Below are positions 4,232 through 58,478 of a DNA stretch of 64,000 nucleotides, in pieces. The notes under the pieces were generated by a model. It was given only the letters and a program-made list of their open reading frames with translations, made no database searches and was not told where the DNA came from. The DNA comes from an uncultured Rikenella sp. (GTDB lineage Bacteria > Bacteroidota > Bacteroidia > Bacteroidales > VadinHA17). The number at the start of each line of letters is the position of its first letter. The first letter of the stretch is position 1. The DNA is taken from positions 26,381 to 90,380 of the forward strand of contig CAZVLJ010000002.1 in the NCBI GenBank assembly GCA_964627825.1. Reading direction: 5' to 3'. Both the position numbers and the translations under genes were made by a program.

Positions 4232-4256
4232 TTCCACAAACCATATTGATATGCAG

Positions 4257-4285
4257 GTAACGGGGGGTCTGAGACCCCCCGTTAC
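4257..4285. repeat. Palindromic G6/C6 hairpin repeat, copy 1 (GTAACGGGGGGTC-tga-GACCCCCCGTTAC)
   Basis: Perfect 13-bp arms with a 3-nt loop, in the rplI/ridA convergent spacer. Confidence 0.85.
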
Positions 4286-4320
4286 TGTATACAGATGCGA
4301 ATCTGTCTGGTATGCGGGAT

Positions 4321-4347
4321 GCAACGGGTCTGAGACCCCCCCGTTAC
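4321..4347. repeat. Palindromic hairpin repeat, copy 2, with unequal homopolymers (G3 versus C7)
   Basis: GCAACGGGTC-tga-GACCCCCCCGTTAC. Same core as copy 1, but the left arm has 3 G and the right arm 7 C. Confidence 0.8.
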
Positions 4348-4351
4348 CATA

Positions 4352-4729
4352 TCATTTGACCGCCACGGTCTCTATCTCAATGAGGGCACCCAGCGGCAGT
4401 CCCTTAACGGCGAAGGCAGCCCTGGCAGGCTGATCAGCAGTATAGAACTGTGCATAGACCTCATTCATAGCCTTGAAGTCTGCCATTTCAGAGAGCAGGC
4501 AGGTTGATTTGACCACGTCATTCATAGTGTATCCTGCAGCGATGAGTATTGCCCTGATGTTTTTCAGTACCTGTGTGGTCTGTTCAGTTATGCCTCCCTC
4601 AACCATCTTTCCTGTTGCAGGGTCCACCGGCACCTGTCCTGATATGTAAAGCGTTCCGTCGGCCTCCACGGCCTGGCTATAGGGGCCGATGGCTCCCGGG
4701 GCAGCTGTTGTGCTGATGATTTTTTTCAT
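4352..4729 (-). CDS. ridA: RidA/YjgF family reactive-intermediate deaminase
   Basis: MKKIISTTAAPGAIGPYSQA.. ..PARAAFAVKGLPLGALIEIE. Start set at ATG 4729; the longest ORF reaches 4783 and would overlap the upstream gene. Confidence 0.9.
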   Translation of the reverse strand: MKKIISTTAAPGAIGPYSQAVEADGTLYISGQVPVDPATGKMVEGGITEQTTQVLKNIRAILIAAGYTMNDVVKSTCLLSEMADFKAMNEVYAQFYTADQPARAAFAVKGLPLGALIEIETVAVK

Positions 4730-4748: not shown

Positions 4749-7511
4749 TTAGTAGTTATCATGGTAATCCTTTCTGCGTTCATACTTGAGGTCCTGCAGC
4801 ATGCTTGCCTTAGCCCTGATGGTAAAGTTCCAGCTCTTCATGTATCCTACGGGGATCCATGAGAAGCTCATCTCCCAGCAATGGAGATCACGACTGATAC
4901 CCACGCGGGTCATAGTGATCTCATTCTGTTTGAAATCGAAACCTGTATTGTAATTGATTGCCATCTTTGGAGTGAGCTTCACGTTCCCTGACATTGTCAT
5001 TGTCTGGTTTATGTTGGTTCTCAGTCCCGACTTACTATAATTGAAGTTGTATGCCATTCTGAGTGACCAGGGGACATCAAACCTGGCATATCCGTACTCG
5101 TCCAGGTCTTTGTTGGCCAGGGGCAGATTGCCTGATGCGGCCCCTCCCAAAGCGCCGGGCTCACCCATCTCCCGTCCGGGTGTTCCCTGAGATGTCTGTC
5201 CGGATGACTGCTGCTGGCTGCCGCGGTCCTTCCCTCCCAGCAACTGTCCAAGGTCAAGATCGAAGCTCATATTGAAGCTGGTCATCCTGGCAAGCCCCAG
5301 ACCCTGACTTATGGCCAGCTGGTTCACCGTTCCGCCATTGGCATTCATTCCGTAGAGGGTAAAGCTGCTTCCGGCCTGAACGTTGATATTCTGTGCGAGG
5401 GTTGTCCGGAAAGACATACTGATGGGCGACCAGTTAAGTGAATCGGCAAACAGGTTATAAGAAGTATTAAGTGACAGACTCTCAATAAGCTTAACCTTTT
5501 TCGGCTTTCCGGTTGTATCATTTTTGGCGTACATCTTTGCCTCCACGAGATTGGTAAGGCTGAATGAGACCGATCCCGATCGTCTTCCGCTGGACGGTGT
5601 TCCGTAGATACTTCCGTCATAGTAAGAATACAGCCGTTTCCTGCCCGAATCATCATACTGGACGCTGTCATGCATTCTGGAAGTCAGCCAGTCGGCTTCG
5701 GGAGAGTAGGAGAAGCCCACTGATGGTTTCATTACATGTCTTATAGATTCAATCCTGGAGCCCTTTTTCGTAAATGAAAATGTTCCATACAGTGAGGGAT
5801 TAAATGAGGCGCCAAGTGTGGGCACCAGGGCCTGGCCGTAGGTTAATCCTCGAATTGTATCATTGACCACTGACGGGACCACCGTGTTCCTGGTTTCGTC
5901 ATAATAATCCGGATCCCATCTCTTGTGAATCTGCTGTGTATAAAGCACCCCGGTATAGCGGAGTGAGGGTGAGATTGAAAAATTGTTGAAAGGTCTTATC
6001 TGAAGGCTCAGAGGTACTTCATGCTTGAACCCGGTCTGCATGCTCTTCCAGACGGCGCTGGTAAAGAGGAGGCTGTCATAGGTGTTGATCTTGTTCTCAA
6101 AGGAGGCTGTATACTGGGTGGTGATGTCATGGTACCACCTGCTTGTGCCAACCAGCTTCTTTGGCTTGAAGGGATAGATTCTGGATACGGTGAGGGAGCC
6201 CCTGGGCAGGCTCAGGTTCATTGTTTTCCTGCGTGTATCCTGGTTCAGGTTCAGGCTTGAGGAAAAACTAATGGGGGTGCCTGCCCATGATTTTGAGTAG
6301 TTTATGTTAGATTGCCTTGAGGTAGTAACATGATCAGTCACATCGTAACTGTTCTCCTTGTCATAACCGCTTGATTTCATGTTTACGCTGGCTGAGAATC
6401 TGGAACCGGGATTAGCCTTGGCGTCTTGAGAGTGGCTCCAGCTGATGCCATAGTTGACGTTCTGGCCATAGTCAGGCATACCCTTGTAGCTGGTAACGTT
6501 GTTTGCATAGCTGAAAGCAAAGGAGCCCGAGAAACGGTATCGCAGCCGGTATGAGGTAGCCGCATCGGCAAGCCAGGTGCCGTTGGTATAGATTGTACCG
6601 GTCAGCTTGAGATCAAAATAATCACTCAGGGCAAAATAGTAACCTCCGTTTGAAAGGTAATAACCCCGTCGCGTCTCCTGTCCGTACCTGGGCATGACTA
6701 TTCCTGAGGCTCTCTTCTGCTGTACGGGGAAGAAGCCGAAGGGCAGTATCAGGGGCAATGGTATATCTGCAACAACCATATAGGCTGGTCCGGAGACAAT
6801 CTTTTCCCCCGGGTATACCTTGGCTTTGGGTAAAGCCAGATAAAAATGCGGTTCCTCGGCCTCACAGGTAGTAAATTTACTGCGGTTGACATGGAGGGTC
6901 CCATCCTCATGTCTCTTGGTTGTCAGGCTCTGCAGGTAGCCTCCCTCCTGCTCTGTGGTAACATTGCGGATAACTCCCTTTTTTGATTTGAAATTATAGG
7001 TCAGTTCCTTCGATTCAAACTCCTCCGAGCCATCCTTGTAGACAGGCAATCCGATCATCTTCCCTGTTGAATCAATCCTGCCCGTAGCGTACACCGAGCC
7101 GGTCTCCATGTCAAGTACTATGGAATCAGCTGTCAGTTCAGTTGTTCCATAGGTGACCTTTGCGCTCTGTACAAGGCTCACCTTGCGGGTTCGCAGGTCC
7201 GTTTTCATATACCCTTCGGCGTTGTATATGATTGGTTCATCAACGGCATCGGGAGAGATTCCCAGTGGTGGTTTTACACCTGCAGTGTCCTGCTGATCAT
7301 TCTGGATTGGGTCAATGATACGCGGGGTTTCCGGGAGATCCTGTCCGGCCACAGTCAGCGTATCGGGCAGCGTTCTCCTCAAAGAGTCGGGACTTTCAGG
7401 CTCCTGAGCAGACAATGCCGTTGTGAAGAGAATCGGCATGAAAATTGTCACAATCAATCTTTGTGCGACAAAATGCAAGTTAAATGCTATTTTTGCGTAG
7501 TTGTTGTGCAT
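4749..7511 (-). CDS. LptD/OstA-like outer-membrane LPS-assembly protein (putative)
   Basis: Long beta-rich secreted protein with FTTCE..PHFY..KAKVYP and DIPLPLILPFGFFP motifs typical of LptD. Start set at ATG 7511, supported by the minus-strand TAGTTTTG box at 7536..7529. The longest ORF reaches 7574. Confidence 0.7.
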   Translation of the reverse strand: MHNNYAKIAFNLHFVAQRLIVTIFMPILFTTALSAQEPESPDSLRRTLPDTLTVAGQDLPETPRIIDPIQNDQQDTAGVKPPLGISPDAVDEPIIYNAEGYMKTDLRTRKVSLVQSAKVTYGTTELTADSIVLDMETGSVYATGRIDSTGKMIGLPVYKDGSEEFESKELTYNFKSKKGVIRNVTTEQEGGYLQSLTTKRHEDGTLHVNRSKFTTCEAEEPHFYLALPKAKVYPGEKIVSGPAYMVVADIPLPLILPFGFFPVQQKRASGIVMPRYGQETRRGYYLSNGGYYFALSDYFDLKLTGTIYTNGTWLADAATSYRLRYRFSGSFAFSYANNVTSYKGMPDYGQNVNYGISWSHSQDAKANPGSRFSASVNMKSSGYDKENSYDVTDHVTTSRQSNINYSKSWAGTPISFSSSLNLNQDTRRKTMNLSLPRGSLTVSRIYPFKPKKLVGTSRWYHDITTQYTASFENKINTYDSLLFTSAVWKSMQTGFKHEVPLSLQIRPFNNFSISPSLRYTGVLYTQQIHKRWDPDYYDETRNTVVPSVVNDTIRGLTYGQALVPTLGASFNPSLYGTFSFTKKGSRIESIRHVMKPSVGFSYSPEADWLTSRMHDSVQYDDSGRKRLYSYYDGSIYGTPSSGRRSGSVSFSLTNLVEAKMYAKNDTTGKPKKVKLIESLSLNTSYNLFADSLNWSPISMSFRTTLAQNINVQAGSSFTLYGMNANGGTVNQLAISQGLGLARMTSFNMSFDLDLGQLLGGKDRGSQQQSSGQTSQGTPGREMGEPGALGGAASGNLPLANKDLDEYGYARFDVPWSLRMAYNFNYSKSGLRTNINQTMTMSGNVKLTPKMAINYNTGFDFKQNEITMTRVGISRDLHCWEMSFSWIPVGYMKSWNFTIRAKASMLQDLKYERRKDYHDNY
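7488..7495 (+). promoter_or_regulatory. -7 promoter box TATTTTTG for the amidase gene
   Basis: Exact TAnnTTTG, 24 nt upstream of ATG 7519. It overlaps the 5' end of the divergent LptD-like gene. Confidence 0.45.
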
Positions 7512-9838: not shown

Positions 9839-10161
9839 TTTGCTTCAATAATACAAAACCTCTATGCTTCAGTGCATTAACTGTTGTTTTTAGCTTCCGG
9901 GAGGTATAAGGAATATCCGGACCATCATATCCTCATCTTCATAACTTTCTGTAACACATTGCTTTTTTTGTATAGTACTGATTATTTGTTAGTTATAAAT
10001 TTTGATGAATGTTCCCTGTTTTAAGGACCTGATGGTCATAACAGTAAAGAATAAATGTAAAAGTCAATAGAAAAAAATTTTTTTTTTTACCTTTTTTTTT
10101 ACAAATATTGTCCCGGGTTTCAGCACCAGATAAAATAAGCGAGTTTTTAATTTTAATCTGA

Positions 10162-11592: not shown

Positions 11593-12755
11593 AAGCTGAC
11601 GTAAATTATCTGAAAGAAGAGTTTTTCAGATTATACGGGGACAGGGAGAGAGAGCCTGTCCTTTTTTATTCTCCCGGAAGGGTGAACCTCATAGGTGAGC
11701 ACACTGACTACAACGGGGGATATGTTTTTCCCTGTGCCCTCGATTTCGGGACCACCCTGCTGGTCCGAAAGACCGACGAAGCGGAACTAAGACTGAACAG
11801 CATCAATTTCCCGGGTGATGTAAGAGTCCCTGTAGCTCTCAATTATATTCCTGTACCGAAGAGCTGGACCAACTATCCGGTAGGAGTGATTAATGAATTT
11901 GCCCGCAATGGCATCAGGGCTTGTGGCATGGAGATGCTTTTCATGGGTGACATTCCGAACGGCGCCGGTCTCTCTTCATCAGCATCAATTGAGATGGTCA
12001 CGGCTGTAGCTATGAATGAGCTTACCGGAGCAGGACTGGAGATGATGGAGATGGTAAGGATGAGTCAGAAGGCTGAGAACGGCTTTGTAGGGATGAACTG
12101 CGGCATAATGGACCAGTTTGCCGTGGGTTTCGGCAGGAAAGGTCATGCCATCAACCTCAACTGCGATACCCTTGAATACAGGTATGCTCCGCTGAACCTG
12201 GGAGACAGGAGGCTGGTAATCACTAACACCAATAAACGCCGGGGTCTGACTGACTCGAAGTATAACGAACGGCGCTCAGAGTGCGACAGAGCGGTGGAAC
12301 TGATCTCTGTCCACAGGCCCATACGTCACCTCAGTGAACTGACTGTTGCTGACCTCTGGATGCTTGACAGCTACATTGATGATCCCGTGGTCAGGAAGAG
12401 AGCCAGGCATGTCATTACCGAGAACGGCAGGACCCTCGATGCCATCATGGCATTGGAAAGCAATGACATAGCTCTATTCGGTAAACTGATGAACGAGTCG
12501 CATGACTCACTCTGCAATGACTATGAAGTTACAGGCATGGAGCTGGATACCCTTGTCTATGAGGGCAGGAAGCTGCCCTGGGTTATCGGTACAAGGATGA
12601 CCGGCGCCGGCTTCGGGGGATGCACTGTCTCAATTGTTGAGAATCGGCATGTGGACGAATTCATTGAGAAACTTGGTGAGATCTACGCCCGGAAGAGCGG
12701 ACTGACTGCAGACTTCTACCTTCCTGGCATCGGTGACGGAGCCCGCATTATGTAG
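11589..12755 (+). CDS. galK: Galactokinase
   Basis: GRVNLIGEHTDYNGG signature and GHMP motif PNGAGLSSSAS. The start overlaps the dnaA stop (ATGA). Confidence 0.95.
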   Translation: MKADVNYLKEEFFRLYGDREREPVLFYSPGRVNLIGEHTDYNGGYVFPCALDFGTTLLVRKTDEAELRLNSINFPGDVRVPVALNYIPVPKSWTNYPVGVINEFARNGIRACGMEMLFMGDIPNGAGLSSSASIEMVTAVAMNELTGAGLEMMEMVRMSQKAENGFVGMNCGIMDQFAVGFGRKGHAINLNCDTLEYRYAPLNLGDRRLVITNTNKRRGLTDSKYNERRSECDRAVELISVHRPIRHLSELTVADLWMLDSYIDDPVVRKRARHVITENGRTLDAIMALESNDIALFGKLMNESHDSLCNDYEVTGMELDTLVYEGRKLPWVIGTRMTGAGFGGCTVSIVENRHVDEFIEKLGEIYARKSGLTADFYLPGIGDGARIM

Positions 12756-12851
12756 GCAGTAGGCGGTAGGCAGTAGTGAAATTACTGCTAATTATGCAGT
12801 TACAGTTTATATTGTCAACACTCTTGTCTCTTGCCTCTTGCCTGCTGCCTG
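12753..12851 (+). repeat. Heptamer-armed hairpin element, family 1 (TAGGCAG-type / CTTGCCT-type arms)
   Basis: Left arm TAGGCAG TAGGCGG TAGGCAG TAGTGAA, right arm CTTGTCT CTTGCCT CTTGCCT GCTGCCT. 12754..12776 pairs with 12828..12850 (17 WC, 4 G.U, 2 mismatches). It fills the whole gap between two convergent stop codons. Confidence 0.85.
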
Positions 12852-12852
12852 A

Positions 12853-15627
12853 TCAAAGATCACGAACGCATCTGAATCCGACGGTGGCGCTGCGGTCATA
12901 GCCGGGTGAGACCAGGAGCTGCATCTGGGTCATAGAGAGCGGTTGGGGACCACCGCGCACATACCACCAGCTTGATTCCGGCCTGTACCAGCTTCCCCCC
13001 CTTATTATATTGAAGTAATAGGCTCCGTTACTGTACACATCGCCTGTCATCTGCCAGACATTCCCAACCAGATCAGCCACACCGTACGGGCTCTCTCCTT
13101 TGGGAAAGGCATCCACGGGAGTGGGTCTGCCGAACCCGTTATTGCACTTGGTTGCGTGGAACTCGTCACCCCATGGCCATTCCCTCCCATCGGTGCCCTG
13201 TGCTGCCAGCTGCCACTCCACCTCTGTGGGGAGACGCTTGCCAGCCCAGCTGGCATAGGCCCTGGCATCCTCCAGGCTGATCCAGACAACAGGGTAGCGC
13301 TCCTGCCCGGCAACAGGCAATCCCATCTCCCAGTGTCTCAGATAGTTTGATGTATCCGCCGGTATATACCTGGCAGCCATGATAAACCGAAGATATTCTT
13401 CGTTTGTCACGGGGTACCTGTCAATCAGAAAGCTGTCAGGTGTGGCAGTGATCATCATGCCGGCTGCCGGGTAAGGGACAAACTCATCGGCAGCAGAAAG
13501 GGTGTACGTAAGTGTTGCCGATGGTATGAGTACCATTCCTTCAGATATTTCTGAAGCTGATGCTGTCTTCACCGTTTCCGATACCAGCCATGGGCGTTTG
13601 CGTTCGGGAGCAACAACTCTCTCATCAAGAAGAACTCCGTCAGTGTCAACCAGTTCAATCACAATCTTTTCTCCGGCAATTCCAAATAAAGCGTCACTGT
13701 TCAGGAGGGTGTCCGCCGGAGCATTTATGCTCATTGAGATGTTGTCATAACCGGGTTTCCCTCTGTATATCAGCAGGGTTCCTTCTACAGGTGAGGAGAT
13801 GTGGATCCGGCTGCCGTGGAATTCTGCGGTTATTATTTTTGGCAGCAGGGCAATGCAGTCTATTGAGCTCTCACGCCTGGTGCCGTTAAAAGCCTGGCTC
13901 CATCCTGGTGTCTCAACCGGTGCCATCAGAGTGTTGTTAATTACAGAAGGATTGATTTCCTCATGTCTGAAGAGGGAGACAAGGTGTTTACCTGCGGTGT
14001 CTCCCGGGTTGAATAGCGGGCCGCTGTAACCCCGGTGATCCATATTGAGTACTGTAAAGATCTTCTTCTCACCAGCGTTCCAGCTATTGACATATAGTCT
14101 GTCTGCTTCGCTGCTGATCAGTGGAGTCCAGCTGCCCCCGGAGAAGGCATCGCTGTTCCTTCGTAGGATATATGTTGTTTCTGACAGGTATTCGAGGTCT
14201 TTGCGGAGCTCCTCTCCTCTTCCGCCGGGTCTGAACATATTCAGTTCAGTGCCGTATCCGTTGAAGAATGCCACGGAGATCTCACGGCGGAGCACATCCT
14301 CTCCCGCGTCAGCCACCCTGAAGATGGCAAAGTCAGGCCTGATGAGCTTATTCAGGTTCAGTTCCGGGCTGAGGAACAGGGCGTTATGTACCCTTGCGGC
14401 CACAATCCCGGGCATATCTTTAACTACCGGCATCCCCTCCGAGTACATCACCACCCCTGTGCGGACGGTATCAGCAGCCTGCTGCAGCTCTGCCGATGAC
14501 CTGCCCTCAGTATCGAGTACCACTCCGTCAGCTTCGGTCTCGGCAATTATCTGTGCCATCCCGTGCAGGTGATCTTCTTCACGTGTGCTTTTGTCCCACG
14601 GGTTATAGGCAATGAAGAAACGGCAGCCGTCTGAGCGAGCCGCTCTGCTCAGTCGCCTGAGGGCGGCAGTTCCTCCGGGCAGGTCGCGATAGAGATCCCA
14701 CTGGTTCCTGTCATCCAGGCCCAGTCGGGGCCATGTGGGCCATATCCCGTATACATCCACATGCCCAAAGAGCCTGTTGTACTCTGCAAGGTAGCTTTCG
14801 AACCCTTCCGTGCCGGTGAAGCGGTCATGGAATTCCCTGTCCCAGGCCATCTGAAGGATCATGAGATAACTTGTGCGTATCCATTTCAGGTCGTCCCGCT
14901 GATAGAGAGTCTCGTCAAATCTTTCAAGGTCATACAGCCATCGCTCTGCAAACATCAGCTTCAGTCCCTCCTGCCATTCTCCCCTGAAGAGATCAACCCA
15001 AATGTGGTAGGTAACAGAGGTTCCCGGAGGCAGTATTGTTTCATATCTGCGCATGGTTCCGTTGTCAGTGCCTGTTCGCCGGGCTAATGCCGCAACAGAG
15101 AGGTCACCGGTGGCACGGAAGGTACTGAAACCCGTCTCCCAGGCATTATCAGGGAGAATAACACGCACGGGGCTCCTGCCAGGCAGATGAAGAAAAGCTC
15201 TTGCCAGTGCAGGTGGTCCTCCGCCGGTGATAAAGGCATCATTGTTCTTTTCCCCAAAGGGAACAACATCACTGACAGTAATGGTATCATTCCAGTTATT
15301 GCGCAGCACAAGTTCTGCCAGAAAGCCCGGGTGTGATCCGCCGCGAGGGGTGTACGCAGCTTCAGCTCCTCCGGGGTAGACCATAAGGAAGCGGCTGCCT
15401 GCCAGTCCTGCAGGCACGTCATCAGACTCAAAGCTGACGCCATCAAGCCGGAAGCTGAAAAGGGGCCTTGGTGCATCCAGGTTGACGGCCGTACTGTCAT
15501 CAATGATCAGTGAGACTGCACTGGCGCCATTATCCCTGACAATACCCAGATTATGAAGCGACTGCCCTGACACTGCAAGACAGAACATGAAAAAAAAGAG
15601 GGAAAACCGAAACCTAAAGCTGCACAT
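12853..15627 (-). CDS. Secreted multidomain protein: about 690-aa N-terminal region of unknown function plus a C-terminal FGE-sulfatase (SUMF1-like) fold domain lacking the catalytic Cys pair
   Basis: Signal-like N-terminus MCSFRFRFSLFFFMFCLAVSGQ. The C-terminal part has YPVTNEEYLRFI, RLPTEVEWQLAA, GNVWQMT, RGGSWY and VGFRCV. Confidence 0.7.
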   Translation of the reverse strand: MCSFRFRFSLFFFMFCLAVSGQSLHNLGIVRDNGASAVSLIIDDSTAVNLDAPRPLFSFRLDGVSFESDDVPAGLAGSRFLMVYPGGAEAAYTPRGGSHPGFLAELVLRNNWNDTITVSDVVPFGEKNNDAFITGGGPPALARAFLHLPGRSPVRVILPDNAWETGFSTFRATGDLSVAALARRTGTDNGTMRRYETILPPGTSVTYHIWVDLFRGEWQEGLKLMFAERWLYDLERFDETLYQRDDLKWIRTSYLMILQMAWDREFHDRFTGTEGFESYLAEYNRLFGHVDVYGIWPTWPRLGLDDRNQWDLYRDLPGGTAALRRLSRAARSDGCRFFIAYNPWDKSTREEDHLHGMAQIIAETEADGVVLDTEGRSSAELQQAADTVRTGVVMYSEGMPVVKDMPGIVAARVHNALFLSPELNLNKLIRPDFAIFRVADAGEDVLRREISVAFFNGYGTELNMFRPGGRGEELRKDLEYLSETTYILRRNSDAFSGGSWTPLISSEADRLYVNSWNAGEKKIFTVLNMDHRGYSGPLFNPGDTAGKHLVSLFRHEEINPSVINNTLMAPVETPGWSQAFNGTRRESSIDCIALLPKIITAEFHGSRIHISSPVEGTLLIYRGKPGYDNISMSINAPADTLLNSDALFGIAGEKIVIELVDTDGVLLDERVVAPERKRPWLVSETVKTASASEISEGMVLIPSATLTYTLSAADEFVPYPAAGMMITATPDSFLIDRYPVTNEEYLRFIMAARYIPADTSNYLRHWEMGLPVAGQERYPVVWISLEDARAYASWAGKRLPTEVEWQLAAQGTDGREWPWGDEFHATKCNNGFGRPTPVDAFPKGESPYGVADLVGNVWQMTGDVYSNGAYYFNIIRGGSWYRPESSWWYVRGGPQPLSMTQMQLLVSPGYDRSATVGFRCVRDL

Positions 15628-37158: not shown

Positions 37159-37187
37159 ACAGGCGGAGAGATCCGCCTGTTTTTTTT
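37159..37187 (+). terminator. Rho-independent terminator (ACAGGCGG-agagat-CCGCCTGT + T8)
   Basis: Perfect 8-bp GC-rich stem followed by TTTTTTTT. Confidence 0.8.
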
Positions 37188-37191
37188 GGAT

Positions 37192-37299
37192 TAGGCAGTA
37201 GGCAGTTGGCATTAGGCAATAGTGTAACAATGATAAGGTTATTATCAAACTACCCGGCAAAAACTTCACAACTGCCTCTTGCCTATTGCCTCTTGCCTG
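37192..37299 (+). repeat. Heptamer-armed hairpin element, family 1, second copy
   Basis: Left arm TAGGCAG TAGGCAG TTGGCAT TAGGCAA TAGTGTA, right arm ACTGCCT CTTGCCT ATTGCCT CTTGCCT. 37192..37220 pairs with 37271..37299 (21 WC, 3 G.U, 5 mismatches), with a 50-nt loop. Confidence 0.85.
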
Positions 37300-37300
37300 C

Positions 37301-38437
37301 CTATGAGAGTCTGTTGCGATAATCAGTGTACCCGAACTCCCTGACCAGCCTGAATTTCTGATCAGCAGTCCAGATGCCGATATGAGGATGGGGCACACCG
37401 TTGAAGGTGGTGGTCTTGACCATTGTATAATGTATCATGTCCCAGAAGATAATCCTGTCACCGGGATTCAGTTCACGATGGAACGACCAGTCTCCCATGA
37501 AGTCACCTGAGAGGCATGAGTTCCCTCCCATGCGGTAGGTGGGTTTTCCCGGTACCGGGTCAAAGGCTCCCATGATTACAGGTTTGTATGGCATCTCGAG
37601 GCAGTCAGGCATGTGTGCTGTGAATGAAACATCAAGCATGGCGGTCTGTATTCCATCACGTACAATTATATCCTCCACAGTAGCCACCAGTTCACCTGTT
37701 TCCCATGCAAAGGCGCTTCCCGGTTCAAGGATGATATGGATGTCATACTTCTCCCTGAATGTTTTCAGCAGGCCTATGAGATGGTCAGTGTCATAATCTT
37801 TCCGTGTCATCAGATGACCACCACCCATATTGAGCCATTTCAGTTTCGGCAGGAGGTGCCCGAATCTCTTCTCAACCACCTGCAGTACCTTTTCAAGTGT
37901 ATAGGAATCAGACTCGAACAATACATGGAAGTGCAATCCTTCAACTCCTTCCGGCAGTCCGTCAGACAGTTCGTCTGCGGTAACCCCGAGCCGTGACCCG
38001 GGAGAGCACGGGTTATAGATACCTTGGGCAATCTCAGAATACTCAGGATTGATCCGCAGGCCGGGTGAGATATGTTTTCCTTCGCGCTGCAGTACCGGTG
38101 CATATTTCCTGTATTGCGCCAGGGAGTTAAAGGTGATATGCGAGCTGTAGCGAAGAATGGTTCCGAACTCTTCACGGCGGAAGGCGGGGGCATAGGTATG
38201 TGCCGGCACGCCCATCTCCTCATAGCAGAGCCTGGCTTCATGGATGGAGCTGGCTGCCGCGCCGGAGACAAATTCGCGCACTACCGGAAAGACTGACCAC
38301 ATGGCGAAGCCTTTGAATGCCAGTATGATCTCCGTGTCTGAGGTCTGTGCCACATTTTTAATGAGGAGGAGATTCCGCCTCAGCCTCTCCTCGTCAATGA
38401 CATAGCACGGAGAGGGAACCTTGGTGTAGTCAATCAT
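37301..38437 (-). CDS. nspC: Carboxynorspermidine decarboxylase
   Basis: 378 aa, PLP fold-III decarboxylase-like (PCYVIDEERLRRNL.., ILAFKGF, LNMGGG). Immediately downstream of the carboxynorspermidine dehydrogenase gene. Confidence 0.9.
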   Translation of the reverse strand: MIDYTKVPSPCYVIDEERLRRNLLLIKNVAQTSDTEIILAFKGFAMWSVFPVVREFVSGAAASSIHEARLCYEEMGVPAHTYAPAFRREEFGTILRYSSHITFNSLAQYRKYAPVLQREGKHISPGLRINPEYSEIAQGIYNPCSPGSRLGVTADELSDGLPEGVEGLHFHVLFESDSYTLEKVLQVVEKRFGHLLPKLKWLNMGGGHLMTRKDYDTDHLIGLLKTFREKYDIHIILEPGSAFAWETGELVATVEDIIVRDGIQTAMLDVSFTAHMPDCLEMPYKPVIMGAFDPVPGKPTYRMGGNSCLSGDFMGDWSFHRELNPGDRIIFWDMIHYTMVKTTTFNGVPHPHIGIWTADQKFRLVREFGYTDYRNRLS

Positions 38438-42250: not shown

Positions 42251-42289
42251 CCCGGGTTTCTGCCATAATCTGCGTCTGTATCCGCCTTT

Positions 42290-45677: not shown

Positions 45678-48629
45678 ATGAAAAACTCACTTCTGATCTC
45701 ATTTGCCGCTGTTGTGCTCTTATTGCTGACTGTATCCGGATCACGACCTGCCGAAAACAATGTCCCATGGAAGAAATATGCCGGTGACAGTAGAGTTGAC
45801 AGTATCCTTAACACGATGACAGTCAGAGAGATGATTGCACAGCTGATCTGGGTGCCGGCATGGGCTGACGAGCGGGGAGGGAACTACAGGCAGGTTGAAG
45901 AGCTTGTCACCAGGTACGGGGTGGGCGGAGTGATTTTCTTTGAAGGCTCGCGTGACTTGCAGGTTGATTACACGAGGCGCATCAGCGAGGTATCCGTGCT
46001 TCCGCTTATCATTGCCCAGGATGCCGAATGGGGCACAGGGATGAGACTGAGGGAGGTTGAAGACTTCCCATACCAGATAACACTAGGAGCAGTGCAGGAT
46101 GACTCACTCATATACAAAATGGGAGCCGCTGTTGCGTGGCAATGCCGTGATATAGGCGTCAACCTTAACCTTGCACCTGTGGCCGATGTGAACAACAATC
46201 CGCTCAACCCGGTCATCAACCACCGTTCATTCGGAGAGGATCCCGGAAGGGTGGCAGAAAAAGCCGTTATGTACATGAAGGGCATGCAGGATAACGGCAT
46301 TCTTGCCTGTGCGAAACATTTCCCGGGCCATGGCGACACCAACGTTGATTCGCACACAGGGATACCTGTTATCAGGGGTGACCGTACCCGCTTTGACAGG
46401 GTGGAGTTTGTACCATTCAGGAGGCTGGTGGATGAGGGTATCGGTGCAGTTATGACAGCTCATATCAGCGTGCCGGACCTTGATGAATCAGGTCTGCCTG
46501 CCACCTTCTCACGAAAGATTGTTACAGGCTTCCTCAGGGAGGAATCGCGCTTCAGAGGACTGATCCTCACCGATGCAATGAATATGGCCGGAGCCACAAT
46601 GACCTATCCCTCGGGGATAGCTGATGCTGAGGCGTTCAGGGCAGGCAATGACATCATTGAGTATTCAACTGACCCTGTTCGTGCCATTGATGAGATTGCC
46701 ACCAGGGTTGAGAAGGGTGAGATAGCCGTCAGCGAGGTCACTGACAGATGCAGGCGATTGCTGGAAGCGAAGCTGTGGCTTGAGAGCCTGAAAAAAAGTA
46801 AATGTGACGCGGACAGATCCGGCACGGGTATCCCTGCAGAGGAACACCCGGCGCTGAAACATGATCTCTATGCCGGCGCCATGACCCTGATAGAGAACAA
46901 TGACAACCTGGTGCCGCTGGGAAGGCTTGACCGGATGAGGATAGCCACAGTAGCTGTCAACAGGCTGGCAATGACTGAATTCCAGGGGATGACAGAGAGA
47001 TATACCAATGCTGACCACTATTATATTGATCCCTCCAATGAGCAGGGAGCCCGATATATCCTCTCCAAGCTGAAAGGTTACGACCTGGTGATTGCCGGTT
47101 TCTGCAATATGGATCAGAGGCCTACAGGGCAGTATGGTGTCACTCCGGAGCTGAACAACATCTTCAGTCAGATTGCCGCCCTTGACAGATCAGCCGTTAT
47201 ATGGTTCGGCAACCCTTATGGTATAGACAGGCTGGATATTACAAGTAAACCAACGGCCATGCTGGTGGCCTATCAGGACAACAGTTACACGCAGCAGGTG
47301 GCTGTACAGGTTCTCTTCGGTGCAATACCCGCCTCCGGGAAGCTTCCTGTCACAATCAATGAGACCTACCCGGCAGGTACAGGCATAAAGACCGCCGGAA
47401 ATCTAAGGCTGCAGTTCGGCTATCCTGAGAACGCGGGGCTCTCATCAGTAAGACTCATCAGTAAGGTAGACTCCATAGTTAACGAAGGGCTTGACACCCT
47501 CGCCTACCCCGGATGCCATGTGCTTATAGCCCGCAGGGGAGTGGTGGTACTGAACAAGTGTTACGGTTTTCATCTCTATGACAGTACCGAAGCTGTCAGT
47601 GAGCATGATCTGTGGGATCTTGCATCGGTGACAAAGGTATCTGCTGCCACGCCCTCACTGATGTTGCTGAATGACCGGGGAATCTTTGATCCGGACAGGA
47701 CACTGGGTTATTACCTGCCATGGTACCGTCTCTCGGACAAGGGCAACATGCTGCTCAGGGAGATGCTTGCCCACCAGGCCGGACTGCGGTCATGGATCCC
47801 CTTCTGGAGAAACACCCTGGAGAATGACTCCACCTTCAGGAAAGGCATCTTCAGTGACTATACCAACAAGAAGTTTGCTCTCGCGGTAACCGATTCAATG
47901 TACATGAGCAGGCGTCATCTCAAGGAGATGTTCAGGGAAATACGTGACAGTCCCACCGGGGAGAAGAAATATGTATACTCAGATCTCACCTTCATCCTTG
48001 CCGCAGAGATAATTGAGACTCTGACGGACAGTACCATTGACAAATTTGCCCCGGCAAACATCTACCGACCCATCGGGGCATTCAACATAACCTACAATCC
48101 ACTCGGGAAATATCCGCGTGATCGAATAGTGCCCACTGAATTTGACTCCCTGTTCAGGCATCAGCTTCTGCGGGGCACTGTGCACGATGAAGGGACGGCC
48201 ATGCTGGGGGGAGTCTCCGGTCATGCCGGTCTCTTTTCCACTGGCATTGATCTGCTCAAGCTGGTTGAGATGTACCGCAGGGGTGGTGAATACGGTGGAG
48301 TGCGGGTACTGAGCAGTGATGTCCTTAAGGAATATACGCGGGTACAGTATCCTGAAAATGACAACCGCAGGGCGATGGGGTTTGACAAGCCCCTGCTGGG
48401 AAATGATACAATACCGCCGGAAGAGGCTTATCCGTGTCCGTCAGCATCTCCGTCAAGCTTCGGGCATTCAGGGTTCACAGGCACTTTCATCTGGGTTGAC
48501 CCCGATGAGGAGATATCATATGTGTTCCTGAGCAACAGGGTCTACCCTACTCGGAACAACAGCAGGCTGTCAGACCTCTCCATCAGGGGCAGGATACTGC
48601 AGGCGGTGTATGATTCCAGGATTGATTGA
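45678..48629 (+). CDS. Fusion protein: GH3 beta-N-acetylhexosaminidase (NagZ-like) + class-C-type serine hydrolase (beta-lactamase family)
   Basis: GH3 part: KHFPGHGDTNVDSH and GLILTDAMNM. C-terminal half: SxxK (ASVTK), YSD, HSGFTG. Signal peptide at the N-terminus. Confidence 0.85.
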   Translation: MKNSLLISFAAVVLLLLTVSGSRPAENNVPWKKYAGDSRVDSILNTMTVREMIAQLIWVPAWADERGGNYRQVEELVTRYGVGGVIFFEGSRDLQVDYTRRISEVSVLPLIIAQDAEWGTGMRLREVEDFPYQITLGAVQDDSLIYKMGAAVAWQCRDIGVNLNLAPVADVNNNPLNPVINHRSFGEDPGRVAEKAVMYMKGMQDNGILACAKHFPGHGDTNVDSHTGIPVIRGDRTRFDRVEFVPFRRLVDEGIGAVMTAHISVPDLDESGLPATFSRKIVTGFLREESRFRGLILTDAMNMAGATMTYPSGIADAEAFRAGNDIIEYSTDPVRAIDEIATRVEKGEIAVSEVTDRCRRLLEAKLWLESLKKSKCDADRSGTGIPAEEHPALKHDLYAGAMTLIENNDNLVPLGRLDRMRIATVAVNRLAMTEFQGMTERYTNADHYYIDPSNEQGARYILSKLKGYDLVIAGFCNMDQRPTGQYGVTPELNNIFSQIAALDRSAVIWFGNPYGIDRLDITSKPTAMLVAYQDNSYTQQVAVQVLFGAIPASGKLPVTINETYPAGTGIKTAGNLRLQFGYPENAGLSSVRLISKVDSIVNEGLDTLAYPGCHVLIARRGVVVLNKCYGFHLYDSTEAVSEHDLWDLASVTKVSAATPSLMLLNDRGIFDPDRTLGYYLPWYRLSDKGNMLLREMLAHQAGLRSWIPFWRNTLENDSTFRKGIFSDYTNKKFALAVTDSMYMSRRHLKEMFREIRDSPTGEKKYVYSDLTFILAAEIIETLTDSTIDKFAPANIYRPIGAFNITYNPLGKYPRDRIVPTEFDSLFRHQLLRGTVHDEGTAMLGGVSGHAGLFSTGIDLLKLVEMYRRGGEYGGVRVLSSDVLKEYTRVQYPENDNRRAMGFDKPLLGNDTIPPEEAYPCPSASPSSFGHSGFTGTFIWVDPDEEISYVFLSNRVYPTRNNSRLSDLSIRGRILQAVYDSRID

Positions 48630-48703
48630 TTTTCGATTTGCGATGTTCGATGTTCGATTTGTGATGGGCAATTGTCAATTAATTCGCAGATCGTAGATTG
48701 TAA
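48627..48703 (+). repeat. Heptamer-armed hairpin element, family 2 (CGATTTG-type)
   Basis: TGATTTT CGATTTG CGATGTT CGATGTT CGATTTG TGATGGG ..14 nt.. TTCGCAG ATCGTAG ATTGTAA. 48627..48643 pairs with 48684..48700 (12 WC, 4 G.U, 1 mismatch). The first TGA is the stop codon of the GH3 fusion gene. Confidence 0.8.
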
Positions 48704-48838: not shown

Positions 48839-48907
48839 GCTCAGGGCAGAGGGCTCAGGGCTCAGAGTTTTCCTGCCCTGTGCCCTGCGCTCTTTGCTCT
48901 TCGCTTC
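48839..48907 (-). repeat. Heptamer-periodic imperfect hairpin filling the tRNA-tRNA spacer
   Basis: CTCAGGG CAGAGGG CTCAGGG CTCAGAG - ttttc - CTGCCCT GTGCCCT GCGCTCT TTGCTCT TCGCTTC. In-register pairing runs from 48839..48861 with 48875..48897. Confidence 0.7.
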
Positions 48908-48913
48908 TTCCTG

Positions 48914-52223: not shown

Positions 52224-52247
52224 TTCCAGACCTTCAGACCCTCAGAC
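52224..52247 (+). repeat. Three tandem 8-nt units (TTCCAGAC CTTCAGAC CCTCAGAC) right after the lysA stop
   Basis: Read directly; starts 1 nt after TAA 52221..52223. Confidence 0.7.
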
Positions 52248-58042: not shown

Positions 58043-58390
58043 ATGCCAAGAGCAACAAACGCACCAGCATCGAAGGCAAGAAGGAAGAAGATCTTAAAAC
58101 AGACAAAGGGGTATTTTGGCAACAATGCTAACGTCTATACCGTTGCCAAGAACGTACTTGAAAAAGGTCTTGCCTATTCTTACCGTGACCGTAAAGACAA
58201 GAAAGGCCAGTTCCGCGCACTGTGGATCCAGAGGATCAACGCCGGGGCTCGTCTTCACGGAATGAGTTACTCACAGTTTATCGGCGGGCTTGAGAAGAAG
58301 GGTATCTCCCTTAACCGCAAGACCCTGGCCGATCTGGCAATGAATCACCCGGAAGCCTTCAAGGCAATCGTGGATAAAGTCAAGGAGTAA
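58043..58390 (+). CDS. rplT: 50S ribosomal protein L20
   Basis: 115 aa; [47 protein letters not shown]. Confidence 0.96.
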
Positions 58391-58391
58391 G

Positions 58392-58419
58392 AAAAAGCGG
58401 GCTGCGGCCCGCTTTTTTT
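58392..58419. terminator. Bidirectional rho-independent terminator (A5-GCGGGC-tgcg-GCCCGC-T7)
   Basis: GC stem flanked by A5 and T7, immediately after the rplT stop. Confidence 0.85.
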
Positions 58420-58420
58420 A

Positions 58421-58478
58421 TTGTCTATTGCCAATCTGCGATTGTCGGATCAAATCGTAAATCGTAAATCGCAAATCA
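58421..58478 (-). repeat. Heptamer-armed hairpin element, family 2, in lepB-sense orientation
   Basis: The minus strand reads TGATTTG CGATTTA CGATTTA CGATTTG ATCCGAC AATCGCA GATTGGC AATAGAC. 58467..58478 pairs with 58432..58443 (9 WC, 3 G.U). The first TGA is the lepB stop codon. Confidence 0.8.

Follow-up and report, generated by a model that had tools for sequence, protein, structure and literature searches.

In many genomes, heptamers are the most abundant class of long simple sequence repeat (SSR), and polymerase slippage has been proposed as their source (Mrazek 2007, as cited in PMC4679880 and PMC4692102). In cyanobacteria, the 7-bp tandem repeats of the STRR family form intergenic hairpins for which a part in transcript stability or termination has been proposed and whose function is still unknown (PMC2670836). 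Many GGGAATC heptamer arrays of Xanthomonas form inverted pairs, and array length differs from one relative to another (PMC4692102, Rehm et al. 2015). Arrays of TAACTGA are found in Beggiatoaceae, cyanobacteria and a few Bacteroidetes, with a proposed role in translational initiation (MacGregor 2015, PMC4679880). Detailed study of heptanucleotide repeats is described as lacking, and their function as unknown (PMC4692102, PMC2670836). GTAG REPs are placed in the spacers of convergent or co-directional genes, where they often donate a TAG stop codon from their ends, and G.T pairs are frequent in their stems (PMC3733652). In E. coli, ribosomes stall at REPs that lie no more than 15 nt from a stop codon (as summarised in PMC12306157, citing Liang 2015). 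Here we analyse a 64,000-nucleotide stretch from an uncultured Rikenella sp. of the Bacteroidales (assembly GCA_964627825.1, contig CAZVLJ010000002.1, positions 26,381 to 90,380, forward strand; the window hereafter). In this window, the spacer between galK and a convergent gene for an FGE-sulfatase-domain protein (the FGE gene), at 12753-12852, is a long hairpin whose arms are tandem heptamers.

We lean towards the view that the element consists of opposed KAGGCAR heptanucleotide arrays that have grown from both ends of the spacer, are remade by slippage and act as a hairpin at RNA 3' ends. In many bacteria, no other long simple repeats are as over-represented as heptanucleotide repeats, and this locus provides an unusually clean natural experiment on them: a single convergent spacer that can be followed through dozens of related genomes. 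Unrelated 7-nt units have repeatedly replaced one another in the galK/FGE spacer, mostly with an RNA-favourable hairpin retained, and the number of units shifts between near-identical strains, sometimes extending the GalK C-terminus by 7 or 21 residues. The rebuilding of one spacer from unrelated heptamers and the breadth of TAGGCAG across phyla are the most interesting aspects of the system. Three questions become testable: whether such arrays are selected as RNA 3'-end structures, whether they tune expression in the manner of contingency loci, and where the 7-nt period comes from. Such arrays also mislead gene callers on stop codons and C-termini, and terminator predictors miss them.

The hairpin between galK and the FGE gene

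Pfam searches identified the genes flanking the spacer as a galactokinase and an FGE-sulfatase-domain protein, with DnaA encoded just upstream. The galK stop codon is the TAG at 12753-12755, and the opposing gene ends at 12853-12855, where its stop reads TCA (the reverse complement of TGA). The left arm (12753..12776, + strand) reads TAGGCAG TAGGCGG TAGGCAG TAG, its first TAG being the galK stop. It is followed by a loop of 51 nt (12777..12827) and a right arm (12828..12852, - strand) that reads, after the TGA, TCAGGCAG CAGGCAA GAGGCAA GAG and onwards. Positions 12754..12776 pair with 12850..12828 through 17 Watson-Crick pairs, 4 G.U pairs and 2 mismatches; T12753.G12851 is an additional wobble beyond this counted stem, and the galK TAG stop forms the base of the stem. 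The original prediction, made from the letters of the window, had described the spacer as one structured tandem-heptamer element, and its sequence, pair count, additional wobble, loop and stop positions all match to the base. Tandem Repeats Finder called both arms as period-7 arrays (the right one from 12821), and the RNA fold of the + strand uses the described register. As had also been stated, TAG occurs at 12753, 12760, 12767 and 12774 and thus in all three frames.

Two parts of the prediction need a different wording. The right arm had been given as a unit of its own, CTTGTCT CTTGCCT CTTGCCT GCTGCCT. Its position is correct, but on the - strand it reads CAGGCAG CAGGCAA GAGGCAA GAGACAA, which is the KAGGCAR unit inverted and not a different unit. 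This arm lies 1-2 nt from the stop of the FGE gene. Thus, each of the two convergent genes is trailed by KAGGCAR units in its own sense. Likewise, the anchoring of the hairpin on a stop codon is real but is not a special design, because the arrays fill the entire spacer and the unit itself carries a TAG; where the galK TAG is lost, the open reading frame (ORF) runs to the next one (orthologous loci L121 and L129, below).

The stem differs between the two strands. On the opposite strand the four wobbles turn into mismatches, leaving 17 Watson-Crick pairs and 6 mismatches, and nearly all non-Watson-Crick positions at this locus are G.U in the galK-sense RNA. The RNA fold of the + strand reaches -40.1 kcal/mol (z -3.0; 1 of 200 shuffles is as stable) versus -30.9 kcal/mol for the - strand (z -2.25). 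When the two strands were folded with DNA parameters, the folds were weak and their energies near-equal (-17.6 vs -15.7). There is no T-run or U-tract on either strand of the element, in agreement with the prediction, and a scan with a terminator consensus called no terminator at 12753-12852. Rfam returned nothing in the whole window at the gathering score except two tRNAs; at E up to 10, the region 12650-12950 gave one match only, to a plant miRNA model, which is spurious (E = 5).

The loop also contains a sigma-70-like match (TTGACA, 16 nt, CATAAT; 11 of 12 positions) at 12791-12818 on the - strand, directed toward galK antisense. Its TATTGTCAA part is kept in two orthologous loci, L129 and L133. 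The promoter consensus of Bacteroidota differs from the sigma-70 type, and the meaning of this match is therefore doubtful.

Turnover of the orthologous spacer and its arms

Related galK loci were gathered by exact-protein look-ups and a metagenome scan. The best galK match is 93% identical, and the closest homologues of galK and of nspC, a gene at a second repeat locus of the window (below), come from Bacteroidales metagenome-assembled genomes. The comparison of orthologous spacers that the prediction had called for gave a clear distribution. Period-7 (occasionally period-8) arrays build about 24 of the 27 distinct spacers in relatives whose GalK is at least 75% identical; these array-built spacers span 46-246 nt and usually include an inverted arm. 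Arrays were found in 0 of 8 relatives at 62-66% galK identity, in which 9-11 nt, or else 56-75 nt of ordinary sequence, lie between the two genes. Thus, the arrays are an addition in one clade.

The unit at this single site differs from relative to relative. Apart from TAGGCAG on the left with a CTTGCCT-like right arm, we found CAGTCGG with GACTGRA, GAKTTGC with AATCGCA, GGTCTGA with CTTYAGA, GGGTTGA with TTTCAAC, CAGTCTT with GACTGCC, and GGTACAA with a right arm that is not complementary. These unit families are unrelated to one another.

Differences in unit number separate even near-identical strains. The galK genes of L129 and L121 are 99.7% identical at the nucleotide level, and their arrays contain 10.5 vs 12.5 units; those of L123 and L130 are 99.8% identical, with 6 vs 5 units; and L148 and L149, with galK genes 97.6% identical, have spacers of 134 vs 97 nt. 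Alignment identified the 51-nt loop as the orthologous central spacer. Compared with the window, L129 (GalK protein 93% identical) keeps the central 48 nt, but its left arm has about 10 units instead of 3 and its right arm 2 instead of 4. In L133, the central sequence is retained in recognisable form without arrays. A conserved loop between arms of shifting unit number indicates growth in place and not insertion. The arrays expand, contract and are replaced quickly, as replication slippage predicts.

Turnover also reaches the protein. In L121 (2681-2768) and L129 (6164-6237), the galK TAG is changed to CAG, and the ORF runs into the array up to an in-frame TAG. The read-through adds QAAGSRQ (7 aa) or QAAGSRQQAVGSRQQAVGSRQ (21 aa) to GalK in this pair. 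Since the two galK genes are 99.7% identical, the array alters the GalK C-terminus at the strain level. The TAGs in three frames probably act as back-up stops, as L121 and L129 illustrate, and this is probably a side effect.

Do the arms continue to pair when the unit is replaced? We folded left arms with their own right arms and with right arms of other families in 18 orthologous spacers. Left arms paired with their own right arm at a mean of -0.749 kcal/mol per nt versus -0.465 with off-family right arms, and the own pair was better than every off-family pair in 11 of the 18 loci. This advantage means that complementarity survives complete sequence replacement. It is kept across at least five unrelated units, and arm-specific variants of a unit retain a paired core of 5-6 nt. 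Because the two arms are one unit inverted in most orthologous spacers, either transcript can fold a long imperfect stem. Whole-spacer RNA folds favour the galK sense by at least 5 kcal/mol in 11/18 loci, and the reverse was seen in 0/18. The asymmetry in favour of the sense strand, claimed for the window's element from its wobble pairs, therefore holds at this locus and in 11 of 18 orthologous spacers, but it is weak in the second copy described below.

Other arrays in the window and in other phyla

The prediction implied that the element should have further copies. A search of the window for TAGGCRGTAGGCRG with up to 2 mismatches gave 6 matches vs 0.77 expected, and 0 of 100 shuffles reached 6. 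The window contains 6 period-7 arrays, whereas the remaining periods between 4 and 12 account for 2 arrays in total. All 6 lie within the 9% of the sequence that is intergenic, at 4 loci; 4-5 of the 11 convergent spacers have such arrays, and none of the divergent or co-directional spacers does. The heptamer hairpins of the window, two of the TAGGCAG type and three with other units, stand in convergent spacers at the 3' ends of genes.

The second TAGGCAG-type copy occupies 37192..37303 (+ strand), with a left arm at 37192-37222, a loop of about 50 nt and a right arm at 37273-37303. Read on the - strand, its right arm begins with the TAG stop (37301-37303) of the carboxynorspermidine decarboxylase gene (nspC). 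The best register has 21 Watson-Crick pairs, 3 G.U pairs and 6 mismatches, and the loop is unrelated to that of the galK/FGE copy. Adjoining this copy, an ordinary hairpin with a T8 tract (37160..37190, + strand) is the intrinsic terminator of the DUF3575 gene. It is kept in relatives without arrays and shows that the organism has canonical terminators. Turnover in the nspC/DUF3575 spacer is similar to that in the galK spacer: the arms are gained and lost independently, and the neighbouring canonical terminator is conserved.

The remaining arrays are built from other units. At 48627..48700 (+ strand), five GATTTKC units, a loop and TCGCAGATCGTAGATTG form a hairpin that begins inside the TGA stop of a GH3/beta-lactamase gene; its RNA fold is -20.0 in the gene sense vs -9.1 antisense, and orthologues of this element are present in L210 and L213. 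A hairpin of the GCTCAGG / CTGCCCT type (48839..48910) lies between two tRNA-Leu genes and folds at -40.9 on the + strand and -32.3 on the - strand. Arrays of the GATTTRC type at 58420..58478 (- strand) directly follow the stop of a signal peptidase gene on that strand and are adjoined by a bidirectional terminator (58385-58408). In the one-sided elements after the GH3 gene (window, L210 and L213) and after the signal peptidase gene, the fold favours the gene sense. Finally, a period-8 array, CAGACCYT x2.6, at 52227..52247 (+ strand) directly follows the stop (52223) of a diaminopimelate-decarboxylase-like gene. No inverted partner accompanies it, and an A9-hairpin-T5 bidirectional terminator comes next; in L131 and L136, period-8 arrays with a related unit, CTTTCAGA/CCCTCAGA, make up the FGE-side arm of the galK spacer. 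Because terminators with a hairpin and U-tract adjoin some of the copies, the heptamer hairpin is a separate feature. Pfam found no Y1_Tnp or any other transposase domain in the 50 ORFs of the window, which holds only housekeeping genes.

A related locus shows arrays in a spacer that has none in the window. The convergent NTP-transferase/TrkH spacer of L212 (6126-6193) contains TAGGCAG x5 followed by ACCCTCAG x3, and the corresponding spacer of the window (42251-42289) is 39 nt without repeats. The two arrays of L212 are not complementary, and both include a stop codon, each in the same sense as the gene to which the array belongs.

Other elements occur in or near these spacers. A hairpin element of about 75 nt (AGGGCCGAsCGTrAA..AAATGACCC-loop-GGGTCAtTT..GAGCC..TTGCAGGGA) sits inside heptamer arrays of the GGCAATAG type in L136 (1545-1620), L144 (~4420-4485, reverse strand) and L212 (11149-11225). 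The three related genomes have it at two different loci, in the spacer of galK or in that of nspC, and the window has no copy of it. Its appearance is that of a small mobile element that lands within heptamer arrays or travels with them. In L211, a group II intron (an ORF with RVT_1 and GIIM domains, 11642-13060) lies in the spacer downstream of nspC, just after remnant GCAGGCA units and where the sister contig L210 has the DUF3575 gene. In the window itself, the convergent rplI/RidA-family spacer (4232-4351) holds two direct copies of a GC-rich hairpin, GTAACGGGGGGTCTGAGACCCCCCGTTAC, with a fold of about -58 kcal/mol; this is a different, REP-like repeat. The AT-rich spacer of 323 nt that lies upstream of dnaA contains two copies of TTTTTTTTTACC at 10080-10102, which possibly belong to the replication origin. 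Period-12 arrays recur in related loci, with 18 in the clade set.

We scanned one genome per species for TAGGCRG x3 and found at least 120 stretches vs about 2 matches expected by chance. Among the matches listed, the arrays come from about a dozen phyla, and 80 of the records alone cover Acidobacteriota, Bacteroidota, Planctomycetota, Alphaproteobacteria (several Mesorhizobium), Cyanobacteria, Chloroflexia, Verrucomicrobia, Gemmatimonadales and others. Among the same matches, 54 of the 106 TAGGCRG arrays that are away from locus edges have an inverted CTGCCTA-like array within 250 nt; the loci contain 265 period-7 arrays of 94 different units, versus at most 27 arrays for any other period; and the array start coincides with the end of a long ORF (at least 250 codons) in 42/73 cases vs 36% in a transplant control. 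In these listed loci, the corresponding test with ORFs of at least 80 codons (0.93 vs 0.85 in the transplant control) is uninformative, because GC-rich genomes hold many spurious ORFs. Period-7 arrays number 13.9 per 100 kb in clade loci vs 1.8 in distant loci, a comparison confounded by the choice of clade loci for their galK spacer. As nearly all arrays of the clade loci lie in that spacer, we relied on the comparison per spacer and not on the rate per 100 kb.

What the arrays may do and how they compare with known repeats

The G.U asymmetry of the stem and the survival of arm pairing through unit turnover point to a role in RNA, as a 3'-end hairpin. As a stem in the 3' untranslated region, shared by the two transcripts, it would block 3'-to-5' exonucleases. 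In this REP-like role, it would set the position of the mRNA 3' end, near the stop codon, and stabilise it. Possibly, the stem also pauses or stops RNA polymerase without a U-tract. With the stop codon in its base, the hairpin may hold up ribosomes at termination, as REPs do when a stop lies within 15 nt of them. Changes in unit number would then tune expression.

Several observations weigh against a hairpin role. The second copy is almost symmetric, with 3 G.U pairs on the + strand vs 1 on the - strand and folds of -40.2 vs -41.4 kcal/mol, and the hairpin of the tRNA spacer (48839-48910) is more stable on the strand opposite the tRNAs. The end arrays of L131, L136, L157, L160 and the L212 spacer at 6126-6193 are not complementary, which suggests that arrays can seed at each gene end independently of any hairpin. 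Complementary arms are therefore common but not obligatory, as L131, L136 and the L212 spacer show. L133, L154 and L159 have no arrays, the arms of L129 are very unequal (about 10 vs 2 units) and L209 has one arm only; the hairpin is thus dispensable or easily lost. The 18 loci are related to one another, and counts over them overstate independence. Part of the G.U excess could come from strand-biased C-to-T mutation pressure; the GC-skew profile of the window has no clear switch near dnaA and no clear replichore signal. Finally, a hairpin role leaves the 7-nt period without explanation.

The main rival is that the arrays are a neutral by-product. Heptamers generated by slippage would persist where sequence is unconstrained, as in convergent spacers, template switching would create the inverted arms and the hairpin would have no function. 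We regard this as possible but rather unlikely. Hypervariability among near-identical strains would follow directly from it, as would the loss of arrays or the unequal arms in some relatives with intact flanking genes. It would also fit the partnerless single arrays (52227 in the window and about half of the cross-phylum TAGGCRG arrays listed) and the non-complementary arms of some spacers, and the divergent and operonic spacers of this genome are short or promoter-bearing. Yet arm complementarity outlasts replacement by at least five unrelated units, the arm-specific variants hold their paired core of 5-6 nt, and a neutral origin does not account for the wobble bias, that is, for mismatches that are preferentially G.U in the gene-sense RNA. 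What keeps the arms complementary may be selection for the stem or template switching from one arm to the other, and the two are inseparable here. Template switching makes perfect complements and would therefore not yield a G.U bias.

A bolder idea is that the arrays form a sequence-flexible 3'-end signal that is written or maintained by a lineage-restricted factor, or read by a binding protein with a 7-nt period. We consider it improbable. The writer could be a property of the polymerase, a nuclease, a recombinase or an RNA-templated activity. If true, such a signal would account for the strict period of 7, for TAGGCAG with an inverted partner in about a dozen phyla and for the switch-on in whole clades (here relatives with galK at least 75% identical and not those at 66% or less).

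The arrays might also be binding sites for a protein that reads single-stranded RNA or DNA with a 7-nt period, for example a cold-shock or S1-type OB-fold protein, the hairpin being secondary. CspB binds heptamer repeats at a ratio of one protein to each unit, a mode of binding proposed for the TAACTGA repeats (PMC4679880). In Nostoc, heptamer repeats affect expression and an unidentified partner has been proposed (bioRxiv 10.1101/2022.06.06.494920). The strict period of 7 across unrelated units and the recurrence of TAGGCAG in many phyla agree with this proposal, but the single strand would be masked once the two arms pair, and no candidate protein was identified. Moreover, the unit at a single locus is freely replaced, a poor fit to a sequence-specific binder. 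We therefore consider a binding array quite unlikely.

Another candidate is a REP/BIME-type element of the GTAG superfamily, a small palindromic mobile element that is spread by a RAYT (TnpA-REP, a Y1 transposase) and whose GTAG end would provide the TAG. GTAG is found at 12752-12755, the outer end of the stem, and in every TAGGCAG unit. The location, the donated TAG and the G.T pairs match GTAG REPs (PMC3733652), and two copies of the same unit lie within 64 kb. However, the arms are tandem units of about 24 nt around a loop of about 50 nt and do not make a 20-40 bp palindrome with a short loop. The two TAGGCAG copies have unrelated loops, and in the orthologous spacer the number of arm units changes around a conserved loop. 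The GATTTKC and GCTCAGG hairpins of this genome have no GTAG or CGTC tag, GTAG being absent from the other heptamer hairpins of the window, and none of the 50 window ORFs encodes a Y1_Tnp or transposase domain. Such an origin is very unlikely.

Least credible of all is a bidirectional intrinsic (Rho-independent) terminator of galK and the FGE gene: the element is the only strong hairpin in a convergent spacer, where transcript 3' ends are expected (PMC13613805), but it has a 51-nt loop and no U-tract on either strand, the consensus scan is silent, 3'-end stem-loops of Bacteroidota deviate only slightly from typical intrinsic terminators (PMC13613805), and typical terminators adjoin other heptamer hairpins of this genome.

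In assigning the element to a class, we set aside three candidates. A miniature inverted-repeat transposable element was rejected, as the two copies are unrelated in their internal sequence and the orthologous loop stays while the arms vary. The canonical intrinsic terminator is defined by a GC-rich stem, a loop of 3-8 nt and a U-tract, a combination that is missing here, and a REP/RAYT element by a fixed palindrome with a short loop, which is also missing. By contrast, the arrays have the features of heptameric SSRs: a 7-nt unit repeated head to tail, an intergenic position at several loci, a variable number of units and inverted arrays that form hairpins.

The architecture had been thought undescribed, but STRR hairpins (PMC2670836) and inverted Xanthomonas arrays (PMC4692102) were already known. 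The galK/FGE hairpin is of one kind with the STRR hairpins of cyanobacteria and with the inverted GGGAATC pairs of Xanthomonas; in the literature searched, only its TAGGCAG unit and its Bacteroidales setting have no precedent. Literature searches by string and by word returned nothing on TAGGCAG repeats or on such hairpins in Bacteroidales. Like the STRRs of filamentous cyanobacteria, the arrays are dispersed in many copies, consist of tandem 7-bp units in intergenic DNA and form hairpins between genes. STRR units are CCCCAGT, TTGGTCA and CAACAGT. Unlike STRRs, the arrays here occur in Bacteroidales and not in cyanobacteria, have TAGGCAG as their unit, are embedded in the stop codons of convergent genes and have their unit replaced at one orthologous site. 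They thus fall outside STRRs in the strict sense, which are those of heterocystous or filamentous cyanobacteria with the STRR unit sequences.

The GGGAATC repeats of Xanthomonas and the GGGGAYT repeats of Nostoc resemble the arrays here in being mostly intergenic, in lying near the end of a neighbouring ORF and in forming inverted pairs with the potential for a stem-loop or cruciform. Their length and sequence also differ widely at one site between close relatives. Those units form G-quadruplexes and TAGGCAG does not. Moreover, one dominant unit per genome was reported for those repeats, whereas here several unrelated units coexist and replace each other. The TAACTGA repeats likewise place stops in all three frames when tandem and are sporadic across distant phyla, and some of them overlap the stop codon of the upstream gene, as the arrays here do. 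However, TAACTGA mostly stands just upstream of start codons and is hardly ever inverted (one indirect repeat vs 169 direct sets), whereas the arrays here stand at 3' ends and are usually inverted.

GTAG REPs/BIMEs share with the galK/FGE hairpin an extragenic, imperfect palindrome, a place between convergent or co-directional genes, a GTAG end that can give a TAG, and G.T pairs that point to the transcribed RNA. REPs are fixed palindromes of 20-40 bp with short loops, copies of one sequence and linked to RAYTs. Here, by contrast, tandem repeats of variable number make up the arms around a long loop that is specific to the locus, and sister elements lack the tag. As stabilisers of mRNA 3' ends and as stallers of ribosomes near stop codons, REPs nevertheless provide the best functional analogy for the heptamer hairpins described here.

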